DNA from: an uncultured Planctomycetota bacterium
GTDB taxonomy: Bacteria > Planctomycetota > Planctomycetia > Isosphaerales > Isosphaeraceae
Length of the DNA: 64,000 bases
Assembly (NCBI GenBank): GCA_963823665.1
Contig: CAWGMQ010000008.1
Span: 1,632,001-1,696,000 of the forward strand
Reading direction: 5' to 3'
The position numbers were made by a program, and so were the translations under genes. The number at the start of each line of letters is the position of its first letter. The stretch's first letter is position 1. The notes beneath the pieces are model-generated. The model was not told the origin of the DNA. It was given only the letters and a program-made list of their open reading frames with translations, and searched no databases. Of this stretch, positions 1 through 18,484 are shown piece after piece.

Positions 1-668
1 TTGTCGACCTGTGCGGGCTCGTGGATGAAGCTGGCGGTCTCGCGGGAACCGCGTGCATCCTGGCGGACCCAGCCGGTGAACGCCCGGGCGGCTTCGCGGA
101 TGTCGCGCTCGGTAAAGTTTCCGGGGCCCAAGGTGAAGAGCTCGAGGAACTCGCGGGCGAAGTTCTCGTTGGGCTTTTCCTTCCTGCTGGTTCCACCGTC
201 GAGCCAGACGAGCATCGCGGGATCAGTCACAATGGCTTCGAGGAGCGGCGCAAAGCTACCGAGGGCTTTTGAGCGCAGCGTCTCGTTCTGGGCGTCCATG
301 AGTGCGACGGACTCGACCTTCTTGTTGCTGGTGGCGAAGTGTCCGTGCCAGAAGAGGGTGAGCTTTTCGCGGAGCGGGTCTGGACCATGGAGGATGCGGT
401 TGAGCCAGCAGACCTTGAGCAGCTCGATGTTCGACGAGGTGCGCGCCGTCTGCCGCAAACTATCGATGGCTTCCTGGGCGTCGGTGGGGAGCTGCGCCGG
501 GTGAAAGAGATTCTCGACGCTACGGGCGGGGCCGGCCTGGAGGTCGCGGAGCAGCTCCGCGCGGGTGGCGCCGAAGCCGGCGCGGCGGTGCAGGTGGGCG
601 ACCTTGCGGAGGTTCCAGGGGGATTCTGGAGCCGGCTCGTACGGGGACCAGGGGGATTGGTTTGACAC
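1..668 (-). CDS. DUF1800 family protein (partial, runs off the window start)
   Basis: Manual minus-strand translation from GTG at 668: MSNQSPW...AHLHRRAGFGA...PLREKLTLFWHGHFATS...PAMLVWLD...PNENFAREFLELFTLG...DIREAARAFTGW, motifs typical of DUF1800. Confidence 0.85.
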   Translation of the reverse strand, partial: MSNQSPWSPYEPAPESPWNLRKVAHLHRRAGFGATRAELLRDLQAGPARSVENLFHPAQLPTDAQEAIDSLRQTARTSSNIELLKVCWLNRILHGPDPLREKLTLFWHGHFATSNKKVESVALMDAQNETLRSKALGSFAPLLEAIVTDPAMLVWLDGGTSRKEKPNENFAREFLELFTLGPGNFTERDIREAARAFTGWVRQDARGSRETASFIHEPAQVD

Positions 669-697
669 GGTATGCCTCACGTGGTTCGGCCAGTCAT

Positions 698-745: not shown

Positions 746-749
746 GATC

Positions 750-3665
750 TCATCGAGTTTGTGGTTTTTCGACCAGGATGTCACCAAGGTCCAGCGTTTC
801 GCCGGGCTTGACGGTGAAGTCTTTGCGGATCTGCAAGCCTTTCTGGTCATTCGCTAGCGACCAGTCGACGATGCGGTACGGCGCGCGTGGGATCAGGTCA
901 GGTAACGTGATTCTACCGTCGGAGTCGGTTACGGGGCCATGCGGGCGCACGTAGTGGTCTGGATCGATGCTGGCCACCCATGTCTCATCGGCTGCTAACT
1001 GGCTTCCTCTGTCGATTGAGCCGGTGTGAACCGATCCTGGAGTCATGATCAGCTTGAAATACGACCCCATCTCGAGCTTCTGGATTGGCTTGCCGTCGGG
1101 CCCGACGAACCGGGCCTTAGCCTGGCCGCAGGGCTCGAGGCGGACTGTCAGTTCCTCGCTGGCCTGCTTGCCCGAGATTTCCACCGCCGCGCCCCATCGG
1201 TGCTCGGCGTCGAGGAAATAAACCGGCGATTTCTTGTCGGGGTCGAATCCATGCAGCTCGAACCGGCCGTGATGAGCCTGAGTGTAGTTGTGCGTGAGCC
1301 ACACGAGGTTGATGGGGTCGAGCTGCTGGCGGCTGAGCATGACAGCGTCTCGCACCTCCTCGCCCGACGGACCGGACACACGGCCCCGCAGGGTCTTGCC
1401 GGGGTTCAGGGTGGAAGAGATCGTCAAGAACGAGTCACCGGCCTTGCATTCGTAGGCGATGATGTCGTGGGCGTATAATCGCCAGCCGCCGGGCTGACCG
1501 CTTGCATAGAGCTTTCCGCCGCTGATCTCCTGGGGAATAAAGTCGAGGGTGGGAGCCACGATCATCAGGTGTCCCTTGCCGGGCGGCACAGCGACTTGAA
1601 ACGCGCCATCGTCTTTGCTCCTCACGATGGCCTCAAAACCATCGATGATGTCGGGCGGTGGCTTGATGGGGACGAACTGGACGCTCGCCCCCGCGACTGG
1701 CCGGCCGGTCCCGTTCTCGGTCACCTTGCCGTGGATCAAGACGCCGCGCGGCAGTGTGAGGTCAAGTTCCTTCTTGACGGCTCCCTTTGTCCAGGCGAAT
1801 TCGTGCTCGCGGGCGAGATAGGGCTGGCCCTCAGGGGGAAAGGCTCGCATGCGAAAGTAATCGCCCGAGAAAGGGCTGATCTTGAACCGGCCTTCGTCAT
1901 CGGCCCGGAATTTGGTTGTGAACATCCCGCCAAAGGAGCCGAAGCTTGCTCGTACGGAGATCACGGCGCCCTTGATCGGCTGGAGGGTGTCGGCGGCCAG
2001 TGCGCGGCCTTCGATGATCTTCGCGGGATGGAGGGCCAGCGTGACTTCCTTCGAGTCGTCTCGATCCGCGGCCGGGAAGTCGAATCGCTGCTGTGCGAAG
2101 CGGGGGTCCTGGATGAACAGGATGACGGAGAGGCCGCGGCCGATGCCGGCGAGTGTGAATCGGCCCTTGGCGTCGCTCTTGACGCTCTTCGGCCAGGCGC
2201 GAAGCTCCTGCGGAGGAAGAGCCCAGGGGTAGCCGAAACCGAGGTAGAAGCTGTCGAAGTTTCCGGCGCCGGCCAGGGGCGAGACGCTCTGCACGCGATT
2301 GAAAGAGACATCCACTCCCGCGGCCGGCTCACCGCTCAGATCGACCAGCCGGCCGCGAATGAGCTGTTCCGGCCGGAGGCGCAACTCGAGCGCGGTCTCC
2401 CCGGCATCGGGGTGCACGCGGAGGCATCCGAAGCCGGAGCCCGGGCCCGCGGCGCCGGCCAGGGCGTACACCTCGAGGAAACGAGCCGACGAGACACCCG
2501 CCGCCTCGATGCGGAAGCGTCCATCGGCGTCAGTCGCCGCCTGGCCGAGCAACACGAAGGCATTCTTTTCCACGTCGGTTCCCGCGGCCGGAGTGCGAGA
2601 CACGCCGATCACGTCGATCGGCACGCCTGAGGCGGACTTGCCGGCCGGGTCGAGAACACGGCCGGTGAGCGTCATCCGGCCCGGCGTCGGAGTGTCGGGC
2701 ATTGGCGAACGAGGGCTGTGCGGTGCGGCGATCGGCAACGTTCCGGCCAATAAGGCGCTCATGCGTTCGTTCTCCGTCGCGAGCTGGCGATTGACGTAGC
2801 CTGCGCCGGTGGCGATGCTCCCAAGGAGGAACAGGGACAGCAGAGTGAGTTTGAGCTTGGTCGCCAGCATGGACCTCAGCACCTCCTGGGCCAGGACCGA
2901 GGCCAAGGGTGCGGCGGATTGGCCGGCGACGAACCGGATCGCGGCACGCGCGGTCATCTCGCACAGGTAGGATGAGACCGACGCCGAGGCGTAACGCGCG
3001 GAAAGGGCAGCGGCAATTCCAGCGGCGGGCAGGACGACACCGCGCCGGGTGAGCGCTCGCTTGAGCTTTTCGCGGGCGCGGGCCATCCGGCTGCGAAGTG
3101 TTCCGTGCGAGCAGCGGAGCCGGCGGGCGGCCTCGTGGACGGTGAGCCCTTCGAGGTAGCACAAGACGACGGGAAGCCGGAATGCACGGGGTAGACGCTC
3201 GATCTCGTTGTGCAGCAGCTCGGCTTGTTCGACGCTCAGGAAAACCTTCTCGGCTGAGGGGGCGGCGACGCGCGACGCAGCGTTTGACATCAGGGCGGCC
3301 TCCTCGTTCTTACGGCGACGATCGAGCTGGTGCCTGGCATGCCGGCAGGTGCGGAGAGCGACGCCGTAGAGCCAGTTCCCGAGCAAATCGGCATCGCGGA
3401 TCGAGTGTGCCTTTTGAGCCAGAATGACGAAAACCGCCTGGAATGCATCTTCAGCATGCTGGCGGTCGTGCAGCAACTCGGTGCAGACGCCAAGCACCAG
3501 CGGGCCGTGACGGAGCACGAGCGCGGCGAACGCGGACTCGGCGGCCGCGTCTCGTCGTGCGGTGAAGCGGTCGAGGAGCTGGCGGTCGGAGAGTCCGGCG
3601 ACGGAGCGGCCCTCGAAGAGGGCTTCGATCTGCCGGACCACCGAGCCGGATGCTATGGTCGACAT
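750..3665 (-). CDS. ECF sigma-70 factor with TM helix and long C-terminal carboxypeptidase-regulatory-like repeats (ECF57/ECF01-Gob-like), copy 1
   Basis: SDRQLLDRF, HAEDAFQAVF, WLYGVALR, LPRAFRLPVVLCYLEG, GTLRSRMARAR; hydrophobic helix after KLKL; repeated GRV.D..G.P..G / TD..GRF units. Confidence 0.9.
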   Translation of the reverse strand: MSTIASGSVVRQIEALFEGRSVAGLSDRQLLDRFTARRDAAAESAFAALVLRHGPLVLGVCTELLHDRQHAEDAFQAVFVILAQKAHSIRDADLLGNWLYGVALRTCRHARHQLDRRRKNEEAALMSNAASRVAAPSAEKVFLSVEQAELLHNEIERLPRAFRLPVVLCYLEGLTVHEAARRLRCSHGTLRSRMARAREKLKRALTRRGVVLPAAGIAAALSARYASASVSSYLCEMTARAAIRFVAGQSAAPLASVLAQEVLRSMLATKLKLTLLSLFLLGSIATGAGYVNRQLATENERMSALLAGTLPIAAPHSPRSPMPDTPTPGRMTLTGRVLDPAGKSASGVPIDVIGVSRTPAAGTDVEKNAFVLLGQAATDADGRFRIEAAGVSSARFLEVYALAGAAGPGSGFGCLRVHPDAGETALELRLRPEQLIRGRLVDLSGEPAAGVDVSFNRVQSVSPLAGAGNFDSFYLGFGYPWALPPQELRAWPKSVKSDAKGRFTLAGIGRGLSVILFIQDPRFAQQRFDFPAADRDDSKEVTLALHPAKIIEGRALAADTLQPIKGAVISVRASFGSFGGMFTTKFRADDEGRFKISPFSGDYFRMRAFPPEGQPYLAREHEFAWTKGAVKKELDLTLPRGVLIHGKVTENGTGRPVAGASVQFVPIKPPPDIIDGFEAIVRSKDDGAFQVAVPPGKGHLMIVAPTLDFIPQEISGGKLYASGQPGGWRLYAHDIIAYECKAGDSFLTISSTLNPGKTLRGRVSGPSGEEVRDAVMLSRQQLDPINLVWLTHNYTQAHHGRFELHGFDPDKKSPVYFLDAEHRWGAAVEISGKQASEELTVRLEPCGQAKARFVGPDGKPIQKLEMGSYFKLIMTPGSVHTGSIDRGSQLAADETWVASIDPDHYVRPHGPVTDSDGRITLPDLIPRAPYRIVDWSLANDQKGLQIRKDFTVKPGETLDLGDILVEKPQTR

Positions 3666-3712
3666 CGCCGCAGGCCTCCTCGACCCGTCGTGAATCTCTT
3701 TCTTACATCAGG

Positions 3713-3741
3713 TACTGCCTCGCTCTCGGATATCGTATCCC
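3713..3741 (-). promoter_or_regulatory. Putative ECF promoter GGGATAC-N17-CAGTA
   Basis: Minus strand GGGATACgatatccgagagcgaggCAGTA, 48 nt before the ATG; same motif and spacing precede all five ECF genes. Confidence 0.75.
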
Positions 3742-3800
3742 GGTTTGTGGGTGAAATCGCGGAGAGACTGTGCGAGAGACAAGAAAGGGGGGGCGAAGTC

Positions 3801-6698
3801 TTAGCGGCCTGACGGCTTCTCGATCAGGATGTCGCCCAAGTCGACAGTTTCGCCGGGCTTGACGGTGAAGCTCTTCCGGACTCGAGAGCCCGACGGACCG
3901 CCCACGAGGTCGACGATTCGATAGTTCGCACCGGGGATCAGAGCTGGGAATCTGATGCGGCCCTCGGGGTCGGACACAGGCGCTTTCGCGTAATTGATGG
4001 GATCAATGGCGAACAGCCGACCCACCTGGCCGCGGAGGCTGTTCGCGTCCGCGGGGGTGCGGCTTCCTGGGTCTCGATCCGGAATGATGATCGTGGAGAT
4101 CATGTACTCGTGGTGGTAGCCGGCGATCGGCCGGCCGTGAGCGTCGAGCAGGCGAGCTGTGGCCGCGCCGCAAGGCTCGAGGCGAATGGTGAGTGGTCCG
4201 CCGGCGGCGGACTTTCCCGAGAGCTGCGCCGTTGCGCCGAGCCTGCGCTTCGGGTCGAGGAAGTACACAGGAAGTACCCGGTCGGGGTCGAGGCCGTGCA
4301 GCTCGAACCCGCCATTGACGGCGTTGCCGTGATAGTTATCCCGCCAGATGCGCCATGCCGGGGCACTCTGACCGAGGATCTGCTGGCCGATGATCCAGAC
4401 GTCGTTGACAGGTTTCTCGTCCGGCCCGACGAAGCGGCCGGCAACCGTGATGCCACGGCGAAGAGTGACGCGGACTTCCAGTGCGAGCCCGCCCGGCTGT
4501 GGGTCGCAGGCAACGAAGCTGTGGGAATAGATACGCGTGCCACCTTGCTGGCCGCGAAAGAACTCGCGATTGCCGATTTCGCGAAGCACAAAATCTTCGG
4601 TTGGCGCGAGCACGGCAAGATGACCCGCTACCGGTGGTGCGGCAAGCTCGAACGAACCATCGGCGCCCGTCTCCGATTGGCCGTCGCTCTGGTAGGCTCC
4701 GCCGTCCGCGCGAGTGTGTGGCTTGAAGTGCACCGATGCACCCACCACGGGACGGTTCGATCCCTCCTCCGTTACCTTGCCACGAATGACGACACCCTTT
4801 GGAAGGACGAGGTCGATCGACTGCTCGATCGCGCCCTTGGGCCAATCAATTCGCTTCTGAGTGGCGAGGCAAAGTTGACCGAGAGGAGGTAAGGCGGTTA
4901 CGAAAAAAAGTTCGCCCGGCCAGGGGTTCGCGCGAAACCGGCCGTCGGCATCGGTTGTGAAGCTGGCTGACCGCGACCCGCGCTGCGCCTCGCCTGTGGA
5001 AGTGATTTCAACCCGTGCGTGCGGGACGGGTCTGCCGGAGTCGGCAAGAGTCACGCGGCCGGTGATGATCTGGGCGGGCTGGAGCGAGCTCGAAACGGCC
5101 TTTGCGCCACGCGCATCGTCCGTGGCGAGCTCGATCATCTGGGGAGCAAATCGCGGGTCGACGACGTTAAGCCGGATTTCGAGCCCGCGACCGACGCCAT
5201 GCACAGTAAACCGTCCGTCTGCGTCGGTCGTCGCGGGCTTGGGCCAGCCGGGAATGTCGTTGACGCGGGCCCACGAGAAGATCGGTCCTTCCGACGTGAT
5301 GCGACCGTCCAGTTGAGGTCCTGAGTCCGGAACGAGGACGCGCCGGATCCCGACGACGGACACCACGACGCCCTGGGCTGGCCGGCCGGTCAGGTCGAGC
5401 AGGCGGCCGTGGATAAGCTGTTCGGGCTCGAGCGAGATATCGCCCGCGGGCTGGTCTGCGTCAGGGTCGACATTGACCCAACCGGTGCCGTAGCCGGGGG
5501 CCAGCGCTACGACAGTGAATTCGTCACTCCGCGACGACGAGGTGCGAGGCGTGTCGAGCCGGAACCGACCGGATTCGTCGCCATTCGCATGCGCAATCAC
5601 AATCGCATAACGTCCTTCGTCACCGGCGCCAGGCCGCAAGAACTTGGGCCTGGCGGATGCGATCACCGTTGCACCCGGCACCGGTTTGCCCTGCGGATCG
5701 AGCACTCGGCCTACCACGAACATGCGGCCGGGTGCGGGCTTTGCGCTCGTGTCGTCCGGCTTCACCACGGCAGGTGTTTGCCGGGCAGGCTGAGGCGATT
5801 CGGGCGAGTTCCTCGCCAAAGCACGCGTCAGATAGCCAGCGCTTACGGCCACGGCGCCGACGAAAAGCATCGCCATCGAGACGAATTTCAGCTTGTGAAA
5901 GAGCATCGATCGAAGCACCTCCCGGGCGAGGACTGCTGCCAGCGGCGCGGCGGACGGGCCGACGGCGAAGGAAATCGCGGCACGCGCGGTTGTTTCGCAC
6001 AGATGGAATGAAACCGATGCCGAGGCGGAGCCCGGTGACAAAGCCGCGGCAAGTGCGGCTGCCGGCGCGATTATGCCGCGGCGAGTGAGGCCGCGCCTGA
6101 GCTTTTCGCGGGCGCGGACCAAGCGACTGTGGATCGTTCCTGCCGGGCAGCGGAGGCGCAGGGCGGCCTGGTCCAGCGTCAGGCCCTCGAAATAGCAAAG
6201 CACGACCGGGATGCGGAACACGCCGGGCAACTGCTCAATCTCGGCGTGCAGAGTTTCGGCATGTTCGTGGGCTATTGCCACCTGTTCGGCCGTGTTCGAT
6301 GTGCTGGCTTCTGGTTGGATCATGGTACGGTTCTCTTCGTTCTTACGCTGGCGGGCCAGACGGGCTCTGGCTTTGCGCGCGGTGCGAAGCGCGATTCCGT
6401 AGAGCCAGTTGCTGAGCAGGTCCGGATCGCGGATGGAGCGGGCACGGCTTGCCAGAACCAGGAAGACGGCCTGGAACGCGTCTTCGGCGTGCTGTCGATC
6501 GCCCAAGAGCCTGCGGCAGATGCCAAGGACCATCGGACCGTGCCGAGCGACCAGTGCGGCGAATGCGTCTTCGCCGGTCGAGTCGCGCTCGGTGATGAAA
6601 CGCTCGACGAGCTGGCGGTCGGAGAGGCCGGCGATGGTGCCGCTGTCGTAGAGCGACTCGATGTGCCGGACTATGGAATGAGTCGTTACGTTGGACAT
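3801..6698 (-). CDS. ECF sigma factor with TM and C-terminal beta-sandwich repeats, copy 2
   Basis: Same architecture as copy 1; start placed at MSNVTT by comparison with the paralogues. Confidence 0.9.
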   Translation of the reverse strand: MSNVTTHSIVRHIESLYDSGTIAGLSDRQLVERFITERDSTGEDAFAALVARHGPMVLGICRRLLGDRQHAEDAFQAVFLVLASRARSIRDPDLLSNWLYGIALRTARKARARLARQRKNEENRTMIQPEASTSNTAEQVAIAHEHAETLHAEIEQLPGVFRIPVVLCYFEGLTLDQAALRLRCPAGTIHSRLVRAREKLRRGLTRRGIIAPAAALAAALSPGSASASVSFHLCETTARAAISFAVGPSAAPLAAVLAREVLRSMLFHKLKFVSMAMLFVGAVAVSAGYLTRALARNSPESPQPARQTPAVVKPDDTSAKPAPGRMFVVGRVLDPQGKPVPGATVIASARPKFLRPGAGDEGRYAIVIAHANGDESGRFRLDTPRTSSSRSDEFTVVALAPGYGTGWVNVDPDADQPAGDISLEPEQLIHGRLLDLTGRPAQGVVVSVVGIRRVLVPDSGPQLDGRITSEGPIFSWARVNDIPGWPKPATTDADGRFTVHGVGRGLEIRLNVVDPRFAPQMIELATDDARGAKAVSSSLQPAQIITGRVTLADSGRPVPHARVEITSTGEAQRGSRSASFTTDADGRFRANPWPGELFFVTALPPLGQLCLATQKRIDWPKGAIEQSIDLVLPKGVVIRGKVTEEGSNRPVVGASVHFKPHTRADGGAYQSDGQSETGADGSFELAAPPVAGHLAVLAPTEDFVLREIGNREFFRGQQGGTRIYSHSFVACDPQPGGLALEVRVTLRRGITVAGRFVGPDEKPVNDVWIIGQQILGQSAPAWRIWRDNYHGNAVNGGFELHGLDPDRVLPVYFLDPKRRLGATAQLSGKSAAGGPLTIRLEPCGAATARLLDAHGRPIAGYHHEYMISTIIIPDRDPGSRTPADANSLRGQVGRLFAIDPINYAKAPVSDPEGRIRFPALIPGANYRIVDLVGGPSGSRVRKSFTVKPGETVDLGDILIEKPSGR

Positions 6699-6788
6699 TT
6701 CGCTCGCTCCGCGTCGCACTCTTCATCACTTTCCACCGCTTCTTCAAGCGGGTTTTCGCGATTCCGGGACACGGCGCTCCGCGCTCTG

Positions 6789-6887
6789 GCGAGCGCCGGC
6801 GCAGCTCGGCGGGAGCCTCGCACTCCCGAAATCATGAGCGAGCGCCGGCGCAGCTCGGCGGGAGCCTCGCCATCCCGAAATCATGAG
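6789..6887. repeat. Tandem duplication (49-nt period) of a GCTCGGCGGGAGCCTCGC palindromic element
   Basis: GCGAGCGCCGGCGCAGCTCGGCGGGAGCCTCGC(AC/CA)TCCCGAAATCATGA starts at 6789 and again at 6838. Confidence 0.85.
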
Positions 6888-6898
6888 ACACCGCTGCA

Positions 6899-6927
6899 TA
6901 CTGCCCGGACAGTGGTCCATTTGTCCC
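6899..6927 (-). promoter_or_regulatory. Putative ECF promoter GGGACAA-N17-CAGTA
   Basis: Minus strand GGGACAAatggaccactgtccgggCAGTA. Confidence 0.65.
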
Positions 6928-6986
6928 ACTTTGTTTGGCAAGTCGCCAGAGAAAAGCGATTGACCGCCGAACGCGGCAGCCCGGAG

Positions 6987-7011
6987 TCGGGAGACGGAGC
7001 TCCCTCCTACA
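6987..7011 (-). repeat. GTAG-type REP-like hairpin
   Basis: Minus strand TGTAGGAGGGAGCTCCGTCTCCCGA: GTAG followed by a GGGAG...CTCCC stem. Confidence 0.55.
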
Positions 7012-7106
7012 AACCAATCACGAAGGGGCAGGCGCTGTCGGGCGACGTTTCTAATTATCGCAGGTCATTTGAAAGTCAGTGATCCGCGGGTCATTCACGG
7101 CATCGC

Positions 7107-9929
7107 TTATCGCGATGGCTTCTCGATCAGAATGTCGCCGAGATCGAGCGTCTCACCGGACTTGACGGTGAAATCTCTACGCACCTGGACGCCTTTGTTT
7201 TCGTCGTTCACGGTCGACCAGTCGTTGATCCGATAGGTCGCACCGGGGATCAGGTCCGGAAGCGTGATCCGGCCGCCCTGGTCGGTGAACTGGCCATTCC
7301 AGTAGTGTTTGCGGTCGAGGTTGATGACGGCGGCCGCGTCGGCGGCGAGCTGTGCTTGTGCTTCGGCGGTTCTTGTCCGCGAAGAGGGGCCGCTGCTGCC
7401 GAGGATTTCGAGCTGGGGAGAGATTCTGGGGATCGGTTTGCCGTCTGGCGTGACGAAGCGAGCTTTTGCCTGGCCGCATGGCAGGAGCTGGACCTCGATG
7501 TCTTTGCCGGACTGCTTGCCCGAGAGATCGACGGTCGCGCCCCACTGATGATCGGCGTCGAGGAACGAGACGCGGGTGGGTTTTTCAGGATCGAGCCCGT
7601 GCAGCTCGAAGGATCCATCGCGGGCGTGAATTGTGAGATCGCCGCGCCAGTTGACGTGGAAGTAGTTGAAGTGAAGCAATGCGACGATCTCGGCCTTGTC
7701 GACTGTTTGACCGGCCGGACCGATCAGGCGCCCCTTGACGATCATGCCCGGGCGAAGCTCGGAATGGATCTCGTGCGGTGAATCACCGGCCTTGACTTCC
7801 CAGGGGATGATGTCGTGGGCGTAGTAGCGTTCTCCGCCGGGCTTGCCCGAATAGCGGATGCGTTCGCCGATCGCTTCGAGTACGTAGTCGGGAGTCGGGC
7901 CATAGACGAACAGATGCCCTTTTCCGGGAGGGACGACGATCTGATACGAGCCGTCATCCTTGGTGGTCACGACGTTTTGCCAGCCCTGGATCACGCCGGC
8001 CCTTGAACGAGCCGCGAGCCATTGCACGCTTGCGCCGGCGATCGAGCGGCCGGAACCTTGTTCGATCACCTTGCCGCAGAGCAACACACCGCGCGGGAGC
8101 TTCAAGTCTTGCGTCTTCTTGACCGTTCCCTTGGGGCAGGACACATCCTGCTCGATTGCGAGATAGGGACTGCCTTCTGGGGGAAACACTTCGGCACGGT
8201 AATGGGTGACTGGGCGAACGTTCGTTGTGTATTGTCCGTGCTCGTCGGTGCGGACGTGCACGCCCGAGGACATCGAGATCACCGTGCCGGGAATCGGTTC
8301 GCCCGTGTCGGCGGCGAGGACCTGGCCGTCGATGATGGTTGCGGGCTGGAGGGTCTGTGAAAACTCCTTCGGGCCATCGCGCGTATCGGTCTGGATGCGG
8401 AAGTTCTGGCCGGCGAAACGGCCGTCGCGGACGCTGACGGCCACCGTGACATCGCGACCGATTCCTGAGAGCGTGAGCCGGCCCTGGTCGTCGGTCGTTA
8501 CCGGACGAGGCCAGTTGCCTAGCGCGTCGGGTACGTGGGAGCTGCCAATGTTGACGCCGTCAAACGTGCCGATCTTGGTAGGACGGCCGACGCTCGAGAT
8601 CTGGAGCTTGACTTTGGGAATTGGCTGTCCGTTCACGTCGAATAGCTTGCCGCGAATGACCTGCTCAGGCAGGAGGCGGATCTCGACTGTGGGCGCGCCG
8701 GCATTGGCGTTGAGCTCGGCCCAGCCGAGGCCGAAGCCGGGTGCCGCGGCCAGGGCGTAAACTTCGAAGAACCGTGTGAACGAGGTGCGGGACGCTTCGA
8801 GGCTGAAGCGGCCGCCGGCCGTCGAGAGGCCGCGGCCGAGCACGCGATGGCGCTCCGGGTCGACCACGGTGCGTACCCAGGGCTCACGAGGGCGGCCGAT
8901 GATCTCGACCGGAACGCCGGCCATTTCCTTGCCGGAGGGATCGAGGATTCGGCCGGTGACAAACATTCGGCCGGGTGGTGGAGTTCGATCGATCGGCAGA
9001 GCCGCGTCAGCGCTTTTGGCGACAGGTCGTGTGATTTTCCGGTCCTGGGTCTGCGCCGCGGCCGGTGCCAGGCAGAACGCGCACGTGGCACCCGCGGCAA
9101 TCAACAGTAACGAGAGTGCGGTCAGCTTCAACGTGTTCACGAGCATGGATCGCAGCACCGCTTGCGCGAGAGGCGCAACTGAGAGGCCGGCAGCGAACTC
9201 AACCGCGGCGTGAGCGGTCGTTTCGCACAAGCGGGGCGCCACGGACGCGGAGGCTGCACGCGACCAGAGCGTGGCGGCCAGGGCGGCTGCGGGCAAGACG
9301 ATGTCGCGGCGGTTGAGGCCATGCTTGAGCTTTTCACGCGCGCGGGCCATCCGGCTGCGGATCGTGCCATGGGAGCAACCGAGGCGCCGGGCGGTCTCGT
9401 GAACGGTGAGTCCCTCGAGGTAACAGAGCACGACCGGGAGTCGGAATGCACGTGGCAATCGCTCGATCTCGTCGTGCAGCAACTCGGCCTGTTCGCAGGT
9501 CAGAACCGCCTGCTCGGCTGATGAGGCGGCGATGCTCGAAGCGGCACTGAAGACGGGCATGGCCACCTCGTTCCTGCGACGGCGGACGAGCTGGTGGCGG
9601 AGATGACGGCATGTGCGGATGGTGACACCATAGAGCCAGTTCCCGAGCAGGTCGAGATCGCGGATGGAGTGTGCCTTGCGAGCGAGCACCAGGAAAACAG
9701 CCTGGAAGGCATCTTCTGCGTCGTGGCTGTCGTGTAGAAACTCGTTGCAGACGCCGAGGACCAACGGGCCGTGCCGTCGTACCACGGCGGCGAACGCCGC
9801 CTCACCGGCTGCGTCTCGCCGCGCGGTAAAACGATCGAGGAGCTGGCGGTCGGACATGGCGGCGACTGAGGTCCCGTCGAAGAGCGACCCGATTTGCCGG
9901 ACGAACGAGTTTGTCGCTATTGATGTCAT
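7107..9929 (-). CDS. ECF sigma factor with TM and C-terminal beta-sandwich repeats, copy 3
   Basis: DAEDAFQAVF, GTIRSRMARAR; start placed at MTSIAT because the upstream extension of the ORF call overlaps the promoter motif. Confidence 0.9.
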   Translation of the reverse strand: MTSIATNSFVRQIGSLFDGTSVAAMSDRQLLDRFTARRDAAGEAAFAAVVRRHGPLVLGVCNEFLHDSHDAEDAFQAVFLVLARKAHSIRDLDLLGNWLYGVTIRTCRHLRHQLVRRRRNEVAMPVFSAASSIAASSAEQAVLTCEQAELLHDEIERLPRAFRLPVVLCYLEGLTVHETARRLGCSHGTIRSRMARAREKLKHGLNRRDIVLPAAALAATLWSRAASASVAPRLCETTAHAAVEFAAGLSVAPLAQAVLRSMLVNTLKLTALSLLLIAAGATCAFCLAPAAAQTQDRKITRPVAKSADAALPIDRTPPPGRMFVTGRILDPSGKEMAGVPVEIIGRPREPWVRTVVDPERHRVLGRGLSTAGGRFSLEASRTSFTRFFEVYALAAAPGFGLGWAELNANAGAPTVEIRLLPEQVIRGKLFDVNGQPIPKVKLQISSVGRPTKIGTFDGVNIGSSHVPDALGNWPRPVTTDDQGRLTLSGIGRDVTVAVSVRDGRFAGQNFRIQTDTRDGPKEFSQTLQPATIIDGQVLAADTGEPIPGTVISMSSGVHVRTDEHGQYTTNVRPVTHYRAEVFPPEGSPYLAIEQDVSCPKGTVKKTQDLKLPRGVLLCGKVIEQGSGRSIAGASVQWLAARSRAGVIQGWQNVVTTKDDGSYQIVVPPGKGHLFVYGPTPDYVLEAIGERIRYSGKPGGERYYAHDIIPWEVKAGDSPHEIHSELRPGMIVKGRLIGPAGQTVDKAEIVALLHFNYFHVNWRGDLTIHARDGSFELHGLDPEKPTRVSFLDADHQWGATVDLSGKQSGKDIEVQLLPCGQAKARFVTPDGKPIPRISPQLEILGSSGPSSRTRTAEAQAQLAADAAAVINLDRKHYWNGQFTDQGGRITLPDLIPGATYRINDWSTVNDENKGVQVRRDFTVKSGETLDLGDILIEKPSR

Positions 9930-9972
9930 TTTCGCAGACTCCCTGCGCCGTGAATCATCGTACCACGGCAGG

Positions 9973-10001
9973 TACTGCCTCTCTCGAGAATAGCGTATCC
10001 C
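9973..10001 (-). promoter_or_regulatory. Putative ECF promoter GGGATAC-N17-CAGTA
   Basis: Minus strand GGGATACgctattctcgagagaggCAGTA, 44 nt before the ATG. Confidence 0.75.
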
Positions 10002-10037
10002 GACTTTCCGAGTTTGGCGAGAATTAACGAGCGTCAT

Positions 10038-12848
10038 TCACGGGCGAGGGATGGTGACGTCCGGAAGATCGATTGTCTTGCCGGCCTGGGCCGTGAATTC
10101 GAAGTCATGGCCGCGGAGGCGGTATTTCGCACCGGGGATGAGTGATGACCAGGTAATGCGGCCGTCGGCATCCGTGCGCAAGCGCCGAAGACGCTCGGAA
10201 TCGAGATTCGATTGGTACTGCATATCGGCCATGATTTGATCCGGCCGCGCGTTTATATCGGCGCCGGGCGTGATGATCAACATGAGCTGGTCGCCCGTGT
10301 GGCCCGCGATCGGCTTGCCCTGGGGGTCCTTGTATCGAACGATTGCCGCGCCACATTTCTCGAGCTGGATCGTTACCGGTCCGTCCCGGGCCGATTTGCC
10401 GGAGAGCTCGACGGTTGCCCCGAGCTGGTGCTCGCGGTCAAGGAAATGAAACGTGTAGGGTTTCTCGGGGTCGCAGCCGGGGAGCTCGAACCGGCCGTCT
10501 CGCACCTTGATCTGGGGCGCATTGCCTGTGAAGAAGGTAAATGGTGTGCCGGTCAGCTTGTTGTGAATGTAGGTTCGGCCCAGAGCGATCGCACTCGTGA
10601 TCGGGTGGCCGTCAGGCCCGATCACACGCCCGGCGACGGTAACTCCGCGCCGGAGTTGCAATTTCACGTTTTCGGGCGCCGAGCCGGGCTTGATATCGAT
10701 GTGAGCCAGCGCATCGGGGTACATGAGCGCGTTCGGCAGGGATCGAACTCTCAGCTCCTCGTTCGTCGTTGTGATGTGCAGATAGTCGGGATTCGCTGCC
10801 CGGATGAGCAGGTGGCCTGGTCCGGCGGGAACAACGATCTGGAACTTGCCTTCGGGATCGGACACTGTCTCGCTGTGCCGCAGTTCACCACGTCGAAGGA
10901 GAGGGTTGTTGATTGTCGTCTGGGCATAATGGACGAGTGCGCCGGCAACCGGCTTGCCGGACGCTGCTTCTGTGATCGTGCCGGGTACGCGCACGCCGCG
11001 GCTGAACTTGAGCTCGATCGATTGCGTCACGGCGCCTTTCGGCCAAACGAGATCCGCCCGCGCATCGAGATAAGGCTCGCCCGCAGGTGGATAGGCAGTG
11101 ATCGAGAAGGATTCGCCGGACGCAGGGATGATGCGCGCGAGGCCCTGATCGTTGGTGGCAGCACCGGTCGCTCGTTCTGTTGACGGGCGCTGTCGCCGCA
11201 CGCCGCGAACGCTTACCCAAACGCCTGGCAGGGGCTTGCCGTCGTCGGCGCGCGTGGTGCGGACCTCGATCACCTGGGCGGGAGACAGCGTCAGGGACAG
11301 TGCGCCCGTCTTCGGCTCATCCACGGGATCGATCGAGAACGTCTGCCGAGCGTGGCGGTCACTGCTGGCTTCAACCATGATCGTCGAGCTTCGACCCAGT
11401 CCGCGAAATGTGAAGCGGCCCTGGTCGTCGGTCGTCGCCGGTTCAGGCCATGCGGGGGCTTGGCCGGCGCCATCAAACGGAGCGGTGTGATACCGACTCA
11501 CGCGCACGGGGACTCCGGCGATTGGTTGGCCCTGAACGTCAAACAACCTTCCCCGAACGATTCGTTCGGGTTCCATCGTGATCGTCAAAGGCGAGCGGGG
11601 TAGATCGTCGCCGATGTACTTGCCCGTGAGCGCCCATCCCGTCGCCCCGGCGACCAGATTCAAGCCGACGCGATCGGTTGCGATCCGTGGGAAATCAACG
11701 CGGAAGCGGCCATCTGCATCGGCGGCGGCCGAGCCCAAAACTTCGTAGTGCTCCAGTTCGCGCACAAGGCGGCCTTGGGGAAGCGGCGGCGGCATGGCCA
11801 CCACGGCGACCCGGGCGCCGGGTACCGGCTTGCCATCGGGTGCGAGAACGCGGCCATGAATGGTGACCTGGTCCGGGTCCTGGCGCGAAGACGCTGCTTG
11901 TTGAGTTAATGCTTGGCCCGGGCGAAGTCCGGGCGGGGACGGATTGGGCTCGTCGTTCCTTGCCAGAGCCCGCGTCAGATAGCCGGCGCTCGTGGCGAGG
12001 GCGCCGAGCAACAGGAACGACAGCGCGAGGAGCTTCGCCTTGTGGAATAGCGTGGACCGGAGCAACTGCCTGGCGACGGCCGTCGCCAAGGGTGCGGCGG
12101 ACTGGCCGGCCGCGAACTCGATCGCGGCTCGTGCCGTTGTTTCGCACAGGTGCGGGGAAACCGATGCCGAGGCGGAGCGCGTGGAAAGGGCCGCGGCCAG
12201 GGTGGCGGCGGGTAGGATGATGCCGCGGCGCGTGAGGGCACGCCTGAGTTTTTCGCGGGCGCGGGCCATCCGGCTGCGAAGCGTGCCGTGGGACCAACGG
12301 AGCCGGCGGGCCGCTTCATGGACGGTCAGGCCCTCGAGGTAGCATAGAACGACCGGCAGGCGGAAGGTGCGTGGCAGGCGCTCGATCTCTTCGTGCAGCA
12401 GCTCAGCCTGCTCGCGGGCCAGGAGCGATTGCTCGGGGGATACAGTGGCGGCGCCTGATCTCAGGTTCGACATCTGGGATGCCTCCTCGTGCTTGCGACG
12501 GCGAGCGATGCACAGGCTTGCCTGGCGGCACGTGCGGAGGGCGACGCCGTAGAGCCAGTTGCCGAGAAGGTCGGGGTCGCGGATCGAGTGCGCCTTTTGA
12601 GCGAGGACCAGGAAGACAGCCTGCACGGCGTCTTCGGCGTCGTGGCGATCGCCCAACAGCTCGTTGCATACGCCCAGGACCAGCCGGCCGTGGCGGAACA
12701 CCAACCCGGCGAATGCCGCTTCGCCGACTGCGTCTTGCCGCGCGATGAAGCGGTCCAGGAGCTGGCGGTCCGATAGGCCGGCGACAGCGCTACCCTCGAA
12801 GAGCGACTCGAGCTGCCGCACCATCGAGCCGGATGCATGGGACTGCAT
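10038..12848 (-). CDS. ECF sigma factor with TM and C-terminal beta-sandwich repeats, copy 4
   Basis: DAEDAVQAVF, SHGTLRSRMARAR, TM helix, repeats; the most divergent C-terminal region of the five. Confidence 0.9.
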   Translation of the reverse strand: MQSHASGSMVRQLESLFEGSAVAGLSDRQLLDRFIARQDAVGEAAFAGLVFRHGRLVLGVCNELLGDRHDAEDAVQAVFLVLAQKAHSIRDPDLLGNWLYGVALRTCRQASLCIARRRKHEEASQMSNLRSGAATVSPEQSLLAREQAELLHEEIERLPRTFRLPVVLCYLEGLTVHEAARRLRWSHGTLRSRMARAREKLRRALTRRGIILPAATLAAALSTRSASASVSPHLCETTARAAIEFAAGQSAAPLATAVARQLLRSTLFHKAKLLALSFLLLGALATSAGYLTRALARNDEPNPSPPGLRPGQALTQQAASSRQDPDQVTIHGRVLAPDGKPVPGARVAVVAMPPPLPQGRLVRELEHYEVLGSAAADADGRFRVDFPRIATDRVGLNLVAGATGWALTGKYIGDDLPRSPLTITMEPERIVRGRLFDVQGQPIAGVPVRVSRYHTAPFDGAGQAPAWPEPATTDDQGRFTFRGLGRSSTIMVEASSDRHARQTFSIDPVDEPKTGALSLTLSPAQVIEVRTTRADDGKPLPGVWVSVRGVRRQRPSTERATGAATNDQGLARIIPASGESFSITAYPPAGEPYLDARADLVWPKGAVTQSIELKFSRGVRVPGTITEAASGKPVAGALVHYAQTTINNPLLRRGELRHSETVSDPEGKFQIVVPAGPGHLLIRAANPDYLHITTTNEELRVRSLPNALMYPDALAHIDIKPGSAPENVKLQLRRGVTVAGRVIGPDGHPITSAIALGRTYIHNKLTGTPFTFFTGNAPQIKVRDGRFELPGCDPEKPYTFHFLDREHQLGATVELSGKSARDGPVTIQLEKCGAAIVRYKDPQGKPIAGHTGDQLMLIITPGADINARPDQIMADMQYQSNLDSERLRRLRTDADGRITWSSLIPGAKYRLRGHDFEFTAQAGKTIDLPDVTIPRP

Positions 12849-12891
12849 CGCCGCTGGTTCTCCGCATCATGAAACTCGTTACCACGCGAGG

Positions 12892-12920
12892 TACTGTGTT
12901 GCCGGCTGCTATTGTATCCC
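12892..12920 (-). promoter_or_regulatory. Putative ECF promoter GGGATAC-N17-CAGTA
   Basis: Minus strand GGGATACaatagcagccggcaacaCAGTA, 44 nt before the ATG. Confidence 0.75.
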
Positions 12921-12975
12921 AGGTTGCCGTGGAAGTCGCGACAGAACGCAGATCTTCCGCGGTACGAGTGATCGA

Positions 12976-13025
12976 TCGCACTCGGCCCTCACCCGGCCTT
13001 TGGCCTCCCTCTCCCAGGGGGAGAG
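12976..13025. repeat. Palindromic REP-like element CCCTCACCCGGCC...CTCTCCCAGGGGGAGAG
   Basis: CTCTCCC-AGG-GGGAGAG hairpin; shares 24 nt with 698-721 and resembles 35598-35642. Confidence 0.75.
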
Positions 13026-13044
13026 CAGGTTCAGCTCGCGGTTG

Positions 13045-15945
13045 TCATCGGGCTTGGGGCTTCCCGATCAGGATATCGCCCAGCACGGTGGTTTCGCCGG
13101 GCTTGACGGTGAAGTCTTTGCGCACCGGAGCGGCAGGTGGATTGCGGACGACGATTCGATAGTTTGCGCCGGGGATCAGAGCGGGGAATGTGATTTGACC
13201 CAGAGCATCGGACTGGGGGGGTACCGGATAGTTGATCGGGTCGATCCTGGACAGGTATCCACTTTCGGTTGCAAGGTCATTCGCGCCGACTACGTCGCCG
13301 CGTGCCGGATCTGGTCCGAATCTGACGATCATCGAAGTCATTAACTGGTCGCGGTACCCGGCCACGGGCTTGTTACCGGCGTCGACAAGCCGGGCGACGG
13401 CCGAGCCGCAGGGCTCGAGGCGAATCGTGATAGGCCCGCCGGCCGCGGACTTCCCCGAGAGGTGGGCCACCGCGCCGAGCTTGCGCTTCGGCTGAAAGAA
13501 ATAGACGGGGATCTCGGTATCGGGATCGATCCCGTGCAACTCGAATCGGCCGCTCGGTGCCGTGCCGTGATAGAAACCCGACCAGACGCGCCAAGCGACG
13601 GAACCCGGCCCGAGTGCGGCCCGGCCCATGATCCAGGTATCCGGAACCGGCTGATCGTCGGGACCGACGATTCGGCCCGAGACCGTCTGGCCGCGGCGAA
13701 GCGTGACCTGGACCTCGAGGCCGCTGCCGCCTGATTTCGGTGCGCAGGCGATGAAGCTGTGGGAATAGATTGGCCGGCCGCCTGGCAAACCCTCGTAGAA
13801 CTCGCGATTGCCAATCGCCCGCAACACAAAATCCTCGCTGGGACCCTGAACGGCCAGGTAACCGCCGGCGGCGGGGCCCACGGCGAGCTCGAAGGATCCG
13901 TCGGCTTGGGACTCTGCTTGACCGCTCCCACTGGCATTGGCGCCGGGCGCGGAACGTGGGACGAACATCACCCACGCGCCTGCGACCGGAGCCTTCGAGC
14001 CTTCCTCGGTGACCTTTCCGCGGATCGGCACGCCGCGGGGAAGAGCCAGGTCGACCGACTGCTCAGCCGCGCCCTTGGGCCATTCGATTCTCCTGGAAGC
14101 GGCCAGGTAAGGCTCCCCGACCAGCGGAATCGCTGCGATGGCGAAGACATCACCGGGTAATGGATTCGCGCGAAATCGACCGTCGGCGTTGGCTTGAAAG
14201 GGGATTGTCCGGAAGCCTCTTTGACCCGCCCCTCCGGCAGCGATCTGGATCCGAGCTTCCGGGACAGGCTTGCCCGTGTCAGCGTATGTTACGCGGCCGG
14301 TGAATATCCTGGCGGGTTGCAGGGCCGCGGCGAAGGACTTCGCGTCCGGGGAATCGTCGGTCGCGACATCGATCATCTGGATCGCAAATCGCGGGTCGAT
14401 GATGCTGAGCTGAGCCTCGAGTCGATGGCCGATGCCGTGCAGCTCGAACCGTCCTTCGGCGTCGGTCGTCACGGGCTTGGGCCAGGCTGGAATGTCGTTG
14501 ACACGAAACCAGTACGAGGGCCCGTCGAGGTGCGCACGCGGAAGATCGCTACCCTGTGGCTCCGGAGCGAGGACGCGCCGGATTGCGGAGACCGAGACGA
14601 CGACGCCCTGCGCCGGGCGCTCTTGCAAGTCGAATAGCCGGCCCTTGATCACTTGCTCGCGGCGGAGCGATATGTCGGCGGCGGGCTGATCGAGATCAGG
14701 GTCGATCTCGGCCCACCCGACCGCAAAGCCGGGCGCCAAGGCGATCGCCATGAATTCGTCATTTCGCGTCGACGACGTGCGAGGAGCATCGAGTCGAAAC
14801 CGGCCGGATCCGTCGGCTGCCGCGTGTGCGATCACAGCCTGGTGCTGTCCTTCGAGCCGGGCGACTCTGGGCGACAGCTTGGTGCGGGCGGAGGCGACCA
14901 CGATCGCGCCGGGCACCGGCTTGCCTTCTGGATCGAGGACACGGCCAACCACGAACATTCGCCCCGGAGCCGGCTTGGGCGCTGGATCATCCGGACGAGC
15001 AGCAGCCGGCGATTGGCGACTGGCCGCCAGGCGTTGGGGCTCATCGTTCCTCGCCTGAGCGCGAGCAAGATAACCGGCACTCGAGGCAACGGCGCCGACC
15101 AAGAGCAACGCGAGTGCGAGGATCTTCAACTTGTGAAAAAACATGGTTTGCATTACCTCCAGAGCCAGCGCCGCCGCCAGGGGCGCGGCGGATTGGCCGG
15201 CGGCGAACTGGATTGCGGCACGGGCGGTTGTTTCGCACAGGTGGGGTGAGGGCGATGCCCTTGCCGAGCTGTGTGACAGAGCCGCGACCAGCGCGGCGGC
15301 GGGCAAGACGACACCGCGGCGGGTGAGGCCGCGCTTGAGCTTGTGTCGTGCGCGGGCGATCCGGCTGCGAACCGTTCCGGCGGGGCAGCGCAGCCGGTTC
15401 GCGGCCTCGTCGAGCGTCAGGCCTTCGAAGTAACAGAGGACCACCGGCTTGCGAAACGAAGCTGGGAGCCGGGCGATTTCGCTGTGCAGGGCCTCGGCCT
15501 GCTCGCGATCGATGGTGGGCTCGAGCATCGAACAGAGCAGCGCAGGCGAGCCCGGATCATGTTGGCGCACGAGGCCAGCCTCTTCTTTCTTGCGGCGGCG
15601 GTTGAGCTGGACCTTTGCGCAACGGGCCGTGCGGAGCGCGACTCCGTAGAGCCAGTTTGCCAGAAGATCCGGGTCGCGGATCGAGCGCGCCTTGCGAGCC
15701 AGCACGAGGAAGACGGCCTGGAACGCGTCTTCGGCGTGATGAAGGTCGCCCAGAAGCTGATGACAGAGGTCAAGAACCATCGGGCCGTGCCGCGCGACGA
15801 TCGCGGTGAAAGCGGCTTCGCCGGCGGTGTCGCGCGCCCGGGTGAAACGATCCAGGAGCTGGCGGTCGGAGAGGCCGGCGACCGAGCGGCCATCGAAGAG
15901 CGACTCGAGCGACTGGACCAGACACCCCGGTGCGTTGCGCGACAT
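13045..15945 (-). CDS. ECF sigma factor with TM and C-terminal beta-sandwich repeats, copy 5
   Basis: HAEDAFQAVF, PAGTVRSRIARAR; C-terminal region most similar to copy 2. Confidence 0.9.
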   Translation of the reverse strand: MSRNAPGCLVQSLESLFDGRSVAGLSDRQLLDRFTRARDTAGEAAFTAIVARHGPMVLDLCHQLLGDLHHAEDAFQAVFLVLARKARSIRDPDLLANWLYGVALRTARCAKVQLNRRRKKEEAGLVRQHDPGSPALLCSMLEPTIDREQAEALHSEIARLPASFRKPVVLCYFEGLTLDEAANRLRCPAGTVRSRIARARHKLKRGLTRRGVVLPAAALVAALSHSSARASPSPHLCETTARAAIQFAAGQSAAPLAAALALEVMQTMFFHKLKILALALLLVGAVASSAGYLARAQARNDEPQRLAASRQSPAAARPDDPAPKPAPGRMFVVGRVLDPEGKPVPGAIVVASARTKLSPRVARLEGQHQAVIAHAAADGSGRFRLDAPRTSSTRNDEFMAIALAPGFAVGWAEIDPDLDQPAADISLRREQVIKGRLFDLQERPAQGVVVSVSAIRRVLAPEPQGSDLPRAHLDGPSYWFRVNDIPAWPKPVTTDAEGRFELHGIGHRLEAQLSIIDPRFAIQMIDVATDDSPDAKSFAAALQPARIFTGRVTYADTGKPVPEARIQIAAGGAGQRGFRTIPFQANADGRFRANPLPGDVFAIAAIPLVGEPYLAASRRIEWPKGAAEQSVDLALPRGVPIRGKVTEEGSKAPVAGAWVMFVPRSAPGANASGSGQAESQADGSFELAVGPAAGGYLAVQGPSEDFVLRAIGNREFYEGLPGGRPIYSHSFIACAPKSGGSGLEVQVTLRRGQTVSGRIVGPDDQPVPDTWIMGRAALGPGSVAWRVWSGFYHGTAPSGRFELHGIDPDTEIPVYFFQPKRKLGAVAHLSGKSAAGGPITIRLEPCGSAVARLVDAGNKPVAGYRDQLMTSMIVRFGPDPARGDVVGANDLATESGYLSRIDPINYPVPPQSDALGQITFPALIPGANYRIVVRNPPAAPVRKDFTVKPGETTVLGDILIGKPQAR

Positions 15946-16015
15946 GTGTTCCGGATCTCTCGTCTTCTACATGGCTCGGCCGGAGAATCCCGGCGTGAAA
16001 TCTTCCCACGCTATA

Positions 16016-16044
16016 TACTGGGCAGTCGACTACGATGTTATCCC
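16016..16044 (-). promoter_or_regulatory. Putative ECF promoter GGGATAA-N17-CAGTA
   Basis: Minus strand GGGATAAcatcgtagtcgactgccCAGTA, 71 nt before the ATG. Confidence 0.7.
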
Positions 16045-16073
16045 AGGTTGCGGTCGAAGAGGAGAAGCCGCAG

Positions 16074-17300: not shown

Positions 17301-17362
17301 GTGGCGGAGGCGGGAACAGGACAAGGCGTGCGCCGCCGTAACTGGATTGCGACCTACCCGCA

Positions 17363-18159
17363 ATTCTTGACCGCTACGATCGCCCGGTCGTGAGCTTGGC
17401 GGTATTGTGCGACGAGCAGCGGAGTTGGCGGCCCGACCGATTCGTGTACAATAATTTGGGCGTGGTTCAATTGCGGGTAACACCACCGGCGAACTGGCGC
17501 GAAGCGGGAGCAAGACTAACCGGAGCCCTCGCTTGCGCTTCGGGTTAGTGTAGTTGCCAGGACGCGTCTGCAACGTGTCACCCTAACAGCGGCCCGATTG
17601 AACCACGCCATAATTTGGGCTGTGATCTCGACTTTCGGTTCCCGATGGTCAAGCTGATCGACTATCGCCGGGACGAGGCGGCCCTTGAGCAGTCTGGCAA
17701 TCCGTTTGCGGCCGTCATCCTGGCGCAGCTCAAGGTTCTCGAGACGCGGGATGCGCCCGCGACGCGGTGGCAATGGAAGCTTCGCCTGGTCAAGAGCCTT
17801 TACGATCGTGGGCTGAAACGAGAGCAGGTGCGGCAACTTTTTCGTGTGCTCGACTGGATGTTGGCCCTTCCGCCGGAGCTCGAGCAGTCGTTCCGAACTG
17901 ACCTCGAGCGTTTTGAGGAGGCTCGACGCATGCCTTATGTGACGAGTATTGAAAGACTGCGCGCGAAGAAGGACACAAAGAAGGCGTGGCAGAAGGCCTG
18001 CAGATCGCCATCCTCAAGCTGCTGGAGCTCAAGTTCAAGAAATTGCCGGCCAAGCATGAACGAAAGCTCCGCTCGATCAGCGAGATCGAGCGGCTGGGCG
18101 AACTGTTTCAAGCCGCGAATGACGCCGAGACGCTCGATGATGTCCTCTCGCAGCTCTAA
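17363..18159 (+). pseudogene. 5'-truncated, MITE-interrupted Rpn/YhgA-like (DUF4351-type tail) gene
   Basis: LDRYDRPVVSLAVLCDEQRSWRPDRFVYNNL | GCDLDFRFPMVKLIDY...NPFAAVILAQLK...LFRVLDWMLALP...MPYVTSIERL; tail EEGHKEG...LELKF after a 1-nt shift near 17960. Confidence 0.7.
17459..17609. mobile_element. 151-bp non-autonomous MITE
   Basis: Perfect 13-bp TIR GGCGTGGTTCAAT (17459-17471) / ATTGAACCACGCC (17597-17609); 8-bp direct repeat ATAATTTG at 17451-17458 and 17610-17617; excision restores the reading frame. Confidence 0.9.
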
Positions 18160-18172
18160 GGAGGCTCGACGC

Positions 18173-18482: not shown

Positions 18483-18484
18483 CA

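Follow-up and report, generated by a model that had tools for sequence, protein, structure and literature searches.

Extracytoplasmic function (ECF) sigma factors of group ECF57 are known from Planctomycetes as proteins with membrane-anchored C-terminal extensions, for which proteolytic release has been suggested in the published classification (Casas-Pastor 2021, PMC7826278). In the accessible part of that source, the group is reported with a mean of 5.3 copies, an extension with about two transmembrane (TM) helices and promoters predicted to be not conserved, and it is left open whether the multiple ECF57 copies of one planctomycete are redundant or specialised. Here, we describe an array of five ECF57-type genes (g1 to g5) on the minus strand of a 64,000-nt stretch of DNA (the window) from an uncultured Planctomycetota bacterium of the Isosphaeraceae (assembly GCA_963823665.1, contig CAWGMQ010000008.1, positions 1,632,001 to 1,696,000), together with a bipartite motif in front of each gene, which is very probably an autoregulatory promoter read by the sigma factor encoded downstream of it.

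The array shares with the published group, as far as the source covers it (PMC7826278), the phylum, the sigma2-sigma4 core, an invariant Cys pair, a TM-containing extension, many copies and a carboxypeptidase regulatory-like domain. It differs by a promoter scaffold with paralog-specific dialects instead of non-conserved promoters, by apparently one TM segment according to hydropathy instead of about two, by transthyretin-like sandwiches instead of WD40 domains, and by at least 128 copies instead of a mean of 5.3; an internal start is not mentioned in the part of the published text considered here. The ECF57-type label rests on these described group features. The best PDB matches of the sigma core were AlgU and RpoE, and named relatives belong to Isosphaeraceae/Singulisphaera. 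The Cys pair, C61 in sigma2 and C169 in sigma4, is invariant in 30 aligned proteins and occurs in 128/128 and 115/128 members of the own-genome set, which includes frameshifted copies. Kyte-Doolittle analysis gave one hydrophobic window in four array genes and two in g2, and one at residues 246-300 in 106 of 117 family members. The extensions of the array proteins are of the CarboxypepD_reg/transthyretin-like type and not WD40, which is found in a minority of published ECF57 proteins and is not required of all. In the 16.5-Mb genome (G000) there are at least 150 matches, namely all of the 150 candidates that were scored out of 298; the set used here comprises 128 sigma N-termini from 100 regions, some of them frameshifted. 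Many ECF57 copies, among them L026, L030, L031, L032, L036, L099, L285 and L286, have a matching promoter in spite of a frameshift, which might reflect decay or assembly error.

Regarding activation, IutY of Pseudomonas putida (ECF243) resembles the array proteins in combining sigma and periplasmic domain in one polypeptide; its sigma is freed by two-step proteolysis ending with RseP, and it serves as our working activation model (PMC5411451, PMC8999054). Unlike the array, IutY is a single gene with an outer-membrane siderophore receptor as partner and a FecR-like domain (PMC5411451), and massive paralogy, a private-promoter code or an internal start are not described in the accessible text on IutY (PMC5411451, PMC8999054). 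The proposed route can also be likened to sigmaV/RsiV of Bacillus subtilis, where in the descriptions available a ligand triggers proteolysis of a membrane-spanning inhibitor, the point of resemblance being a signal-peptidase-like A-x-A site after the TM segment in g2-g5. It differs from the array in having a separate anti-sigma protein, in its Gram-positive host and in being one system per genome. The first cut of RsiV is made by signal peptidase.

Probable promoters of the array genes

The motif GGGAYAM-N17-CAGTA has five exact matches in the window, all on the minus strand and each 5' of one ECF gene, compared with none in 100 dinucleotide shuffles. The five copies with a 17-nt spacer, which had been pointed out in a preliminary description of this DNA, were thereby recovered at the same positions.

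750..3665, minus strand: g1, 971 aa; ECF57-type sigma2-sigma4, helical linker, one TM segment (about 273-291), ectodomain of tandem transthyretin-like sandwiches
3713..3741, minus strand: g1 promoter; GGGATA (-36..-31), N18, CAGTA (-12..-8); A-tract adjoining upstream at 3744-3746
3801..6698, minus strand: g2, 965 aa; architecture as g1
6789..6887, strand not assigned: 49-bp tandem duplication inside the g2 leader
6899..6927, minus strand: g2 promoter, GGGACA variant; g2 sigma with His at RpoE position 171
7107..9929, minus strand: g3, 940 aa; architecture as g1
9973..10001, minus strand: g3 promoter
10038..12848, minus strand: g4, 936 aa; architecture as g1
12892..12920, minus strand: g4 promoter; A at -13, Gln at RpoE position 84
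13045..15945, minus strand: g5, 966 aa; architecture as g1
16016..16044, minus strand: g5 promoter; C at -13, Cys at RpoE position 84; lies back to back with an MFS transporter gene of divergent orientation

Aligned in RpoE numbering, the motif reads G-35 G-34 A-33 T-32 A-31, 18 nt, C-12 A-11 G-10 T-9 A-8. This is the bipartite -35/-10 geometry of ECF promoters, and the 18 nt from -31 to -12 equal those of RpoE and fall within a spacer of 16-18 bp. The spacer had been called largely variable; it is variable, but not fully, as two features recur, namely an A-T step shortly downstream of the -35 box and a 3' end rich in G/C. The gap from CAGTA to the ATG amounts to 47, 43, 43 and 70 nt in four genes, i.e. 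43-70 nt where the preliminary description had counted 44-71, and to 200 nt in g2. The g2 leader has only 49 nt in the orthologue of another genome (G001) and was lengthened by the tandem duplication inside it. A Y-R step is mildly raised at the predicted -1/+1 position (0.34).

Genome-wide, the strict motif has seven matches versus five for a backwards control, hence its number alone is unremarkable in 16.5 Mb; what goes beyond chance is the position, because each of the seven immediately precedes one of the closest ECF paralogs. When one mismatch was allowed, the genome scan gave 150 matches versus 225 for the control, i.e. no signal over control. The motif is kept in front of orthologous arrays in G001, where the array has six genes, and in G012; in most of the other genomes searched, strict counts stay at the level of the control. 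GGGACA-type matches in G012 (C16, C54, C99, C39) and G001 (G001:C17) do not precede ECF genes, look like repeats or chance, and were discarded. In the same two genomes, an element starting with GGGACA and carrying CAGTA at equal spacing is repeated away from ECF genes (L131, L132, L133, L128), and is probably a dispersed repeat.

A family-wide scaffold with many dialects

The array motif belongs to a wider pattern. Unseeded expectation maximisation on the 128 own-genome upstream regions returned AAAA-N-GgA-N-CA.TA with a log-likelihood of about 750, compared with 125-151 in seeded shuffles; the family scaffold reads A-tract / G-G-A-x-x / N18 / CA[CGT]TA. With a two-block model, sites with a score of 6 or more were detected in 104/128 own paralogs and 87/106 paralogs from other genomes, but in only 2/234 shuffles. 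The site lies at a median of 43 nt before the start, -31 and -12 are 18 nt apart in 75% of the sites, and with the -35 box masked the same site was found in 121/128 own and 94/106 other paralogs. On this common scaffold, the 104 own-genome sites display 47 distinct -35 words, 29 distinct -10 words and 76 combinations. The scaffold extends with more drift to a second family (58 sigmas from three genomes), where 19/58 regions reach the threshold compared with 0/58 shuffles. The search upstream of homologues, which had been proposed as a check, hence recovered both the scaffold and, in the G001 and G012 arrays, the array motif itself. The earlier view of the motif as the target promoter of this ECF group needs to be narrowed: it is very likely autoregulatory and kept in these arrays, but represents the dialect of one clade, while the group shares the scaffold only.

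Co-variation of promoter bases and sigma residues

Promoter bases co-vary with the contact residues of the cognate sigma factor. The top pairs by mutual information (MI) were 172/-34, the loop residues 66, 69, 72 and 64 with -10, 171 with -31 and -30, 84/-13, 176/-35 and 168/-33. They include the published contacts Ser172/-34, Arg171/-31 and -30, Asn84/-13, Arg176/-35, Gly168/-33 and Phe64/-10, six of the top pairs matching the ECF contact map in Table S1 of Todor 2020 (PMC7776599). Ser172 goes along with G-34 in 117/123 cases, Gly172 with T-34 in 40/42 and Lys171 with C-31 in 42/44. Among sigmas that differ from their nearest relative, the promoter base agrees with the sigma's own residue rather than with the relative by 16:3 at 172/-34 and by 21:6 at 84/-13, and cross-pair controls were flat at low identity.

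A code trained on other genomes only placed the own promoter at a median rank of 0.03-0.04 and among the top 10% for 81-85 of 104 sigmas; when sigmas at least 62% identical to the target were left out, the median rank was 0.04 and the top 10% was reached for 81/104. In the second family, the own promoter had a median rank of 0.06 among the 26/58 sites scoring at least 4; because some residue-position pairs of the code were chosen after the MI result had been seen, this family is its sole blind test. The preferences of K171, S171, S172, R84, K84 and E84 agree with published mutagenesis (Dataset S3, PMC7776599). As far as the available portions of Todor 2020 (PMC7776599) allow a comparison, the contact map, here recovered de novo in one family, the spacing and several residue-base preferences are shared, whereas in our case the code separates paralogs within one genome and the loop residues 66, 69 and 72 hold most of the -10 information. 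The set of that study took in planctomycetes (776 ECFs), hence some ECF57 promoters may be listed there (PMC7776599).

Predicted cross-talk in the array and the visible regulon

Within the array, the residue at position 84 and the base at -13 change together: g1 and g3 combine His with G, g2 Lys with G, g4 Gln with A and g5 Cys with C. Only g2 combines GGACA with His171, and His171 plus Ser172 occur with GGACA in 7/9 distinct sigmas. In the predicted matrix, all five array promoters rank far above the median paralog for the g1 and g3 sigmas, the g2 sigma prefers its own promoter, and g4 and g5 are mixed. The idea that the array genes may activate each other is thus maintained as a prediction for g1, g3, g4 and g5, while g2 with His171 and GGACA is predicted to be partly insulated.

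The genome-wide scan for the regulon, also proposed before, was carried out with four strict patterns that include AA of the upstream A-tract, by which degenerate targets would be missed. They gave 9, 7, 8 and 3 matches, of which 8, 7, 6 and 3 (24/27) lie before ECF57 genes, so that the visible regulon is mostly the own gene. Backwards controls gave 3, 1, 7 and 3 matches, which is probably above the real chance level, since the true patterns include TA steps and these are rare. We lean slightly towards a regulon that is mostly self-only. One full GTATT-N18-CACTA site with A-tract (L283, G000:C3:1734203-1734236) precedes a beta-helix gene and is, from its sequence, the best candidate for a non-self ECF57 target, in the Gly172/Arg171 dialect. 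The only non-ECF site of the array's dialect (L038, G000:C10:2436799-2436832) has two short open frames downstream, and at the equivalent place in G001 no strict match away from ECF genes was found.

A possible internal start inside the sigma genes

A second feature of the family lies inside the coding region. Met266 is kept in 97/117 aligned proteins and is directly followed by a basic stretch, a hydrophobic helix and often A-x-A; the basic n-region is present in 188/194. AAGGAG or GGAGG stands 11-12 bases upstream of the internal Met codon. At Gly(-5) the codon is GGA in 18/23 own-genome copies, 44/56 other loci (mostly Isosphaeraceae) and 16/24 members of the second family, against a background of 7-17%, and Arg(-2) is AGA/AGG in 7/16, 24/47 and 2/14, respectively, against 3-7%; hence, the internal Shine-Dalgarno sequence is held by rare synonymous codon choice. 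Among 118 low-identity representatives, the site is kept in 50/63 Gly codons. Its pairing energy with the anti-Shine-Dalgarno, for which we assumed the generic sequence, is -6.8 as at annotated starts, compared with -5.9 when codons are resampled synonymously and -3.2 at Met56, a conserved control. The region also folds less than the synonymous null (-7.8 vs -9.6), and A is enriched 1.5-2.8-fold at third positions of codons -6 to +6 except -1.

2868..2887, minus strand: g1 putative internal start; AGGAGGT at 2881-2887, in-frame ATG (Met266) at 2868-2870, before a signal-peptide-like segment
5904..5923, minus strand: g2 putative internal start; GGGAGGT and ATG (Met265)
9144..9163, minus strand: g3 putative internal start; ATG (Met262), weak Shine-Dalgarno (-5.3 kcal/mol)
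12051..12070, minus strand: g4 equivalent site; ACG for ATG, Shine-Dalgarno absent (-3.1 kcal/mol); apparent loss of the internal start
15142..15161, minus strand: g5 putative internal start; TGGAGGT and ATG (Met268)

These features make it rather likely that the internal start is used, and the product would then likely be an exported, sigma-less ectodomain. The database proteins P0028, P0033 and P0107 begin at the equivalent of the internal Met; these are choices of gene callers, some on short contigs, and no proof of use.

Protein model and possible activation

All five proteins carry the Pfam domains Sigma70_r2, r4_2 and CarboxypepD_reg. Their pairwise identity is 56-76% in the sigma parts and 37-62% in the ectodomains; judged from this divergence, they are old paralogs. 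The predicted structure of residues 1-320 is compact, with a predicted local distance difference test (pLDDT) score of 91 and a predicted template modelling score of 0.83. Across both domains it superposes on anti-sigma-bound sigmas with a root mean square deviation (rmsd) of 6-13 versus about 27 on polymerase-bound ones, and this nearness to the inhibited forms suggests that the sigma is autoinhibited by its linker.

The ectodomain is predicted to be all-beta (pLDDT 93), with about six transthyretin-like sandwiches as counted from aligned ranges and no catalytic match. Its sequence has no match in the PDB, and its fold matches are generic, the best one (Z 12.7, rmsd 1.6, 81 aligned residues) being the transthyretin-like domain of carboxypeptidase D, so that no ligand could be named. 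The ectodomain shares 58% identity over 651 aa with the one in the BlaR1/M56 peptidase protein P0045. By this sequence comparison it is swapped between two signalling chassis, and its occurrence in a BlaR1/M56 protein favours a role in sensing. The RseP encoded in the genome fits the IutY analogy, by which proteolytic release of the sigma is the option we favour with some reserve.

Weighing of the explanations

Collectively, these data probably are best explained by motifs that each act as self-promoter, in one dialect among many of an expanded ECF57 family whose members are likely mainly self-activating. The full-length protein would reside in the inner membrane, where, as in the predicted structure, its linker helices would keep the sigma closed. 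A signal at the ectodomain would lead to cleavage by signal peptidase or another protease and then by RseP, as in IutY, and the freed sigma would fire its own promoter in a positive loop and, in the array, probably also those of its near-identical neighbours (g1, g3, g4 and g5, less so g2). Translation of the induced mRNA would start at the internal Shine-Dalgarno/ATG as well, and the output would consist of the exported ectodomain and co-transcribed genes such as DUF1800-DUF1501 after g1. It is a tentative extension that ECF57 genes are in general one-gene circuits, in which the same reading frame yields the tethered sensor-sigma and, by way of a conserved internal ribosome site, the exported output, with a private promoter closing the loop; one genome would thus have more than 100 channels that are insulated by few co-evolving residue-base pairs and contain small cross-talking cliques like the present array.

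Several observations weigh against this interpretation. At 171/-31 (11:6) and 66/-10 (19:11) the advantage of the own residue over the relative is not significant, and at 171/-32, the position that sets g2 apart, the base family-wide follows the nearest relative over the residue (7:19). A strict independent-pairs test on supported branches, with at most six pairs, gave at best five same, none opposite and one tie (p=0.0625), this being the best taken from six of ten tests with few supported pairs. In the portion of the mutagenesis data available (PMC7776599), R171 prefers C, whereas it goes with T/A here (54/76), and H171 to G/C, G172 without preference and H84 to AC are likewise unlike this family. 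The predicted matrix ranks the own promoter of g5 below that of g4 for the g5 sigma, and 3/27 strict sites are not at ECF genes, in a scan whose patterns miss degenerate targets. AlphaFold may favour closed sigmas since the PDB holds many of them. Regarding the internal start, the site is strong in g1, g2 and g5 but weak in g3 and absent from g4, its spacing of 11-12 nt is among the longer ones of annotated starts (mode 9), and the internal Met is missing from 20/73 own-genome copies.

Among other explanations, it might be that the promoters are cognate but the real output consists of degenerate targets elsewhere, the internal Shine-Dalgarno being a pause, a site for an RNA-binding protein or a relic of gene fusion. 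The genome was scanned by strict patterns only, one non-self site with full A-tract precedes the beta-helix gene (G000:C3:1734203), some members of the family lack the internal site, and Pinto and da Fonseca propose that the extensions arose by capture of downstream genes; however, 24/27 strict sites are self sites, synonymous codons preserve the internal site in three sets and in the Gly codons of the low-identity representatives, and a relic would not keep the ATG, the basic n-region and the low folding beside it, hence we regard this alternative as unlikely. Much less probable still is one master sigma, either housekeeping or a single ECF, that reads all promoters, with the variation inherited in duplicated promoter-gene cassettes. 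Such a model would account for the common A-tract, G-35 and CAnTA, and relatives do share residues and bases alike, with the supported-branch test being underpowered, but the co-variation falls on known contact pairs and not on cross pairs, and the residue beats ancestry at 172/-34 and 84/-13. Nor is there a sigma70 signature: when a sigma70 promoter (TTGACA N16-18 TAnnnT) was considered, TAnnnT was found in 34/132 regions, TTGACA reached at most 4/6 positions, and 0/5 array promoters were called sigma70-like. A role of the motif as repressor operator or RNA element, and not as promoter, has the smallest probability: short hairpins are possible in the g3 and g5 leaders, but a conserved leader hairpin was rejected as hairpins are not kept across 17 aligned leaders, window positions 1-20000 gave no Rfam match, and the motif is neither palindrome nor direct repeat, while its halves separately track sigma4 and sigma2 residues.

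One ECF promoter per gene is ordinary, and ECF autoregulation and the contact map were already known. In the literature searched, no ECF57 promoter or internal start was found, while Datasets S1-S2 of Todor and the ECF Hub logos may hold earlier motifs. As far as this search goes, the following are new: the ECF57 promoter, its paralog-by-paralog code in a genome with more than 100 copies, strict sites that mostly belong to the own gene, and the connection with a conserved internal start. As each paralog now has a promoter together with a predicted specificity, reporters can directly test whether the ECF57 copies are redundant or specialised. Furthermore, the paralogs provide a within-genome test of the ECF recognition code and, on one scaffold, many naturally occurring sigma/promoter pairs that are candidates for orthogonality. 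A working internal start, if true, would explain what is produced by a sigma whose visible target is mostly its own gene.

Neighbouring genes and other features of the window

Downstream of g1, the following gene continues beyond the window:

1..680, minus strand: 5' part of a DUF1800 gene, starting 69 nt after the g1 stop; DUF1501 follows outside the window

DUF1800 is likely co-transcribed with g1, whose orthologue in G001 it overlaps by 4 nt. An ATG at 751-753, overlapping the g1 stop, was considered as start of this gene and rejected, as its frame has just six codons and the DUF1800 start lies at 680. The intergenic gaps of g1-g5 show no terminator excess, hence read-through between the array genes and into DUF1800-DUF1501 may occur. 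Of the earlier proposal of five separately promoted units rather than one operon, the own promoter of each gene is retained, while the exclusion of an operon is unsupported.

On the opposite strand, an MFS transporter gene (16074-17300, plus strand) begins about 30 nt from the -35 box of g5, hence its promoter must overlap the g5 promoter or leader. Palindromic elements (CCCTCACCCGGCC...), which we take to be REP-like (repetitive extragenic palindromic), occur at 12980-13035 between g5 and g4 and at 700-735 after g1. Farther away, the window contains an Alternative complex III / cytochrome c oxidase gene cluster (29541-39075, plus strand; 4Fe-4S protein, ActD, COX1), and a DUF1592/DUF1552 pair and two Ser/Thr kinases, one with TPR repeats (23322-27253, 50235-53501 and 60352-62199), which are typical planctomycete content. 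A 45-bp tandem repeat with 2.4 copies is located at 47014-47123.

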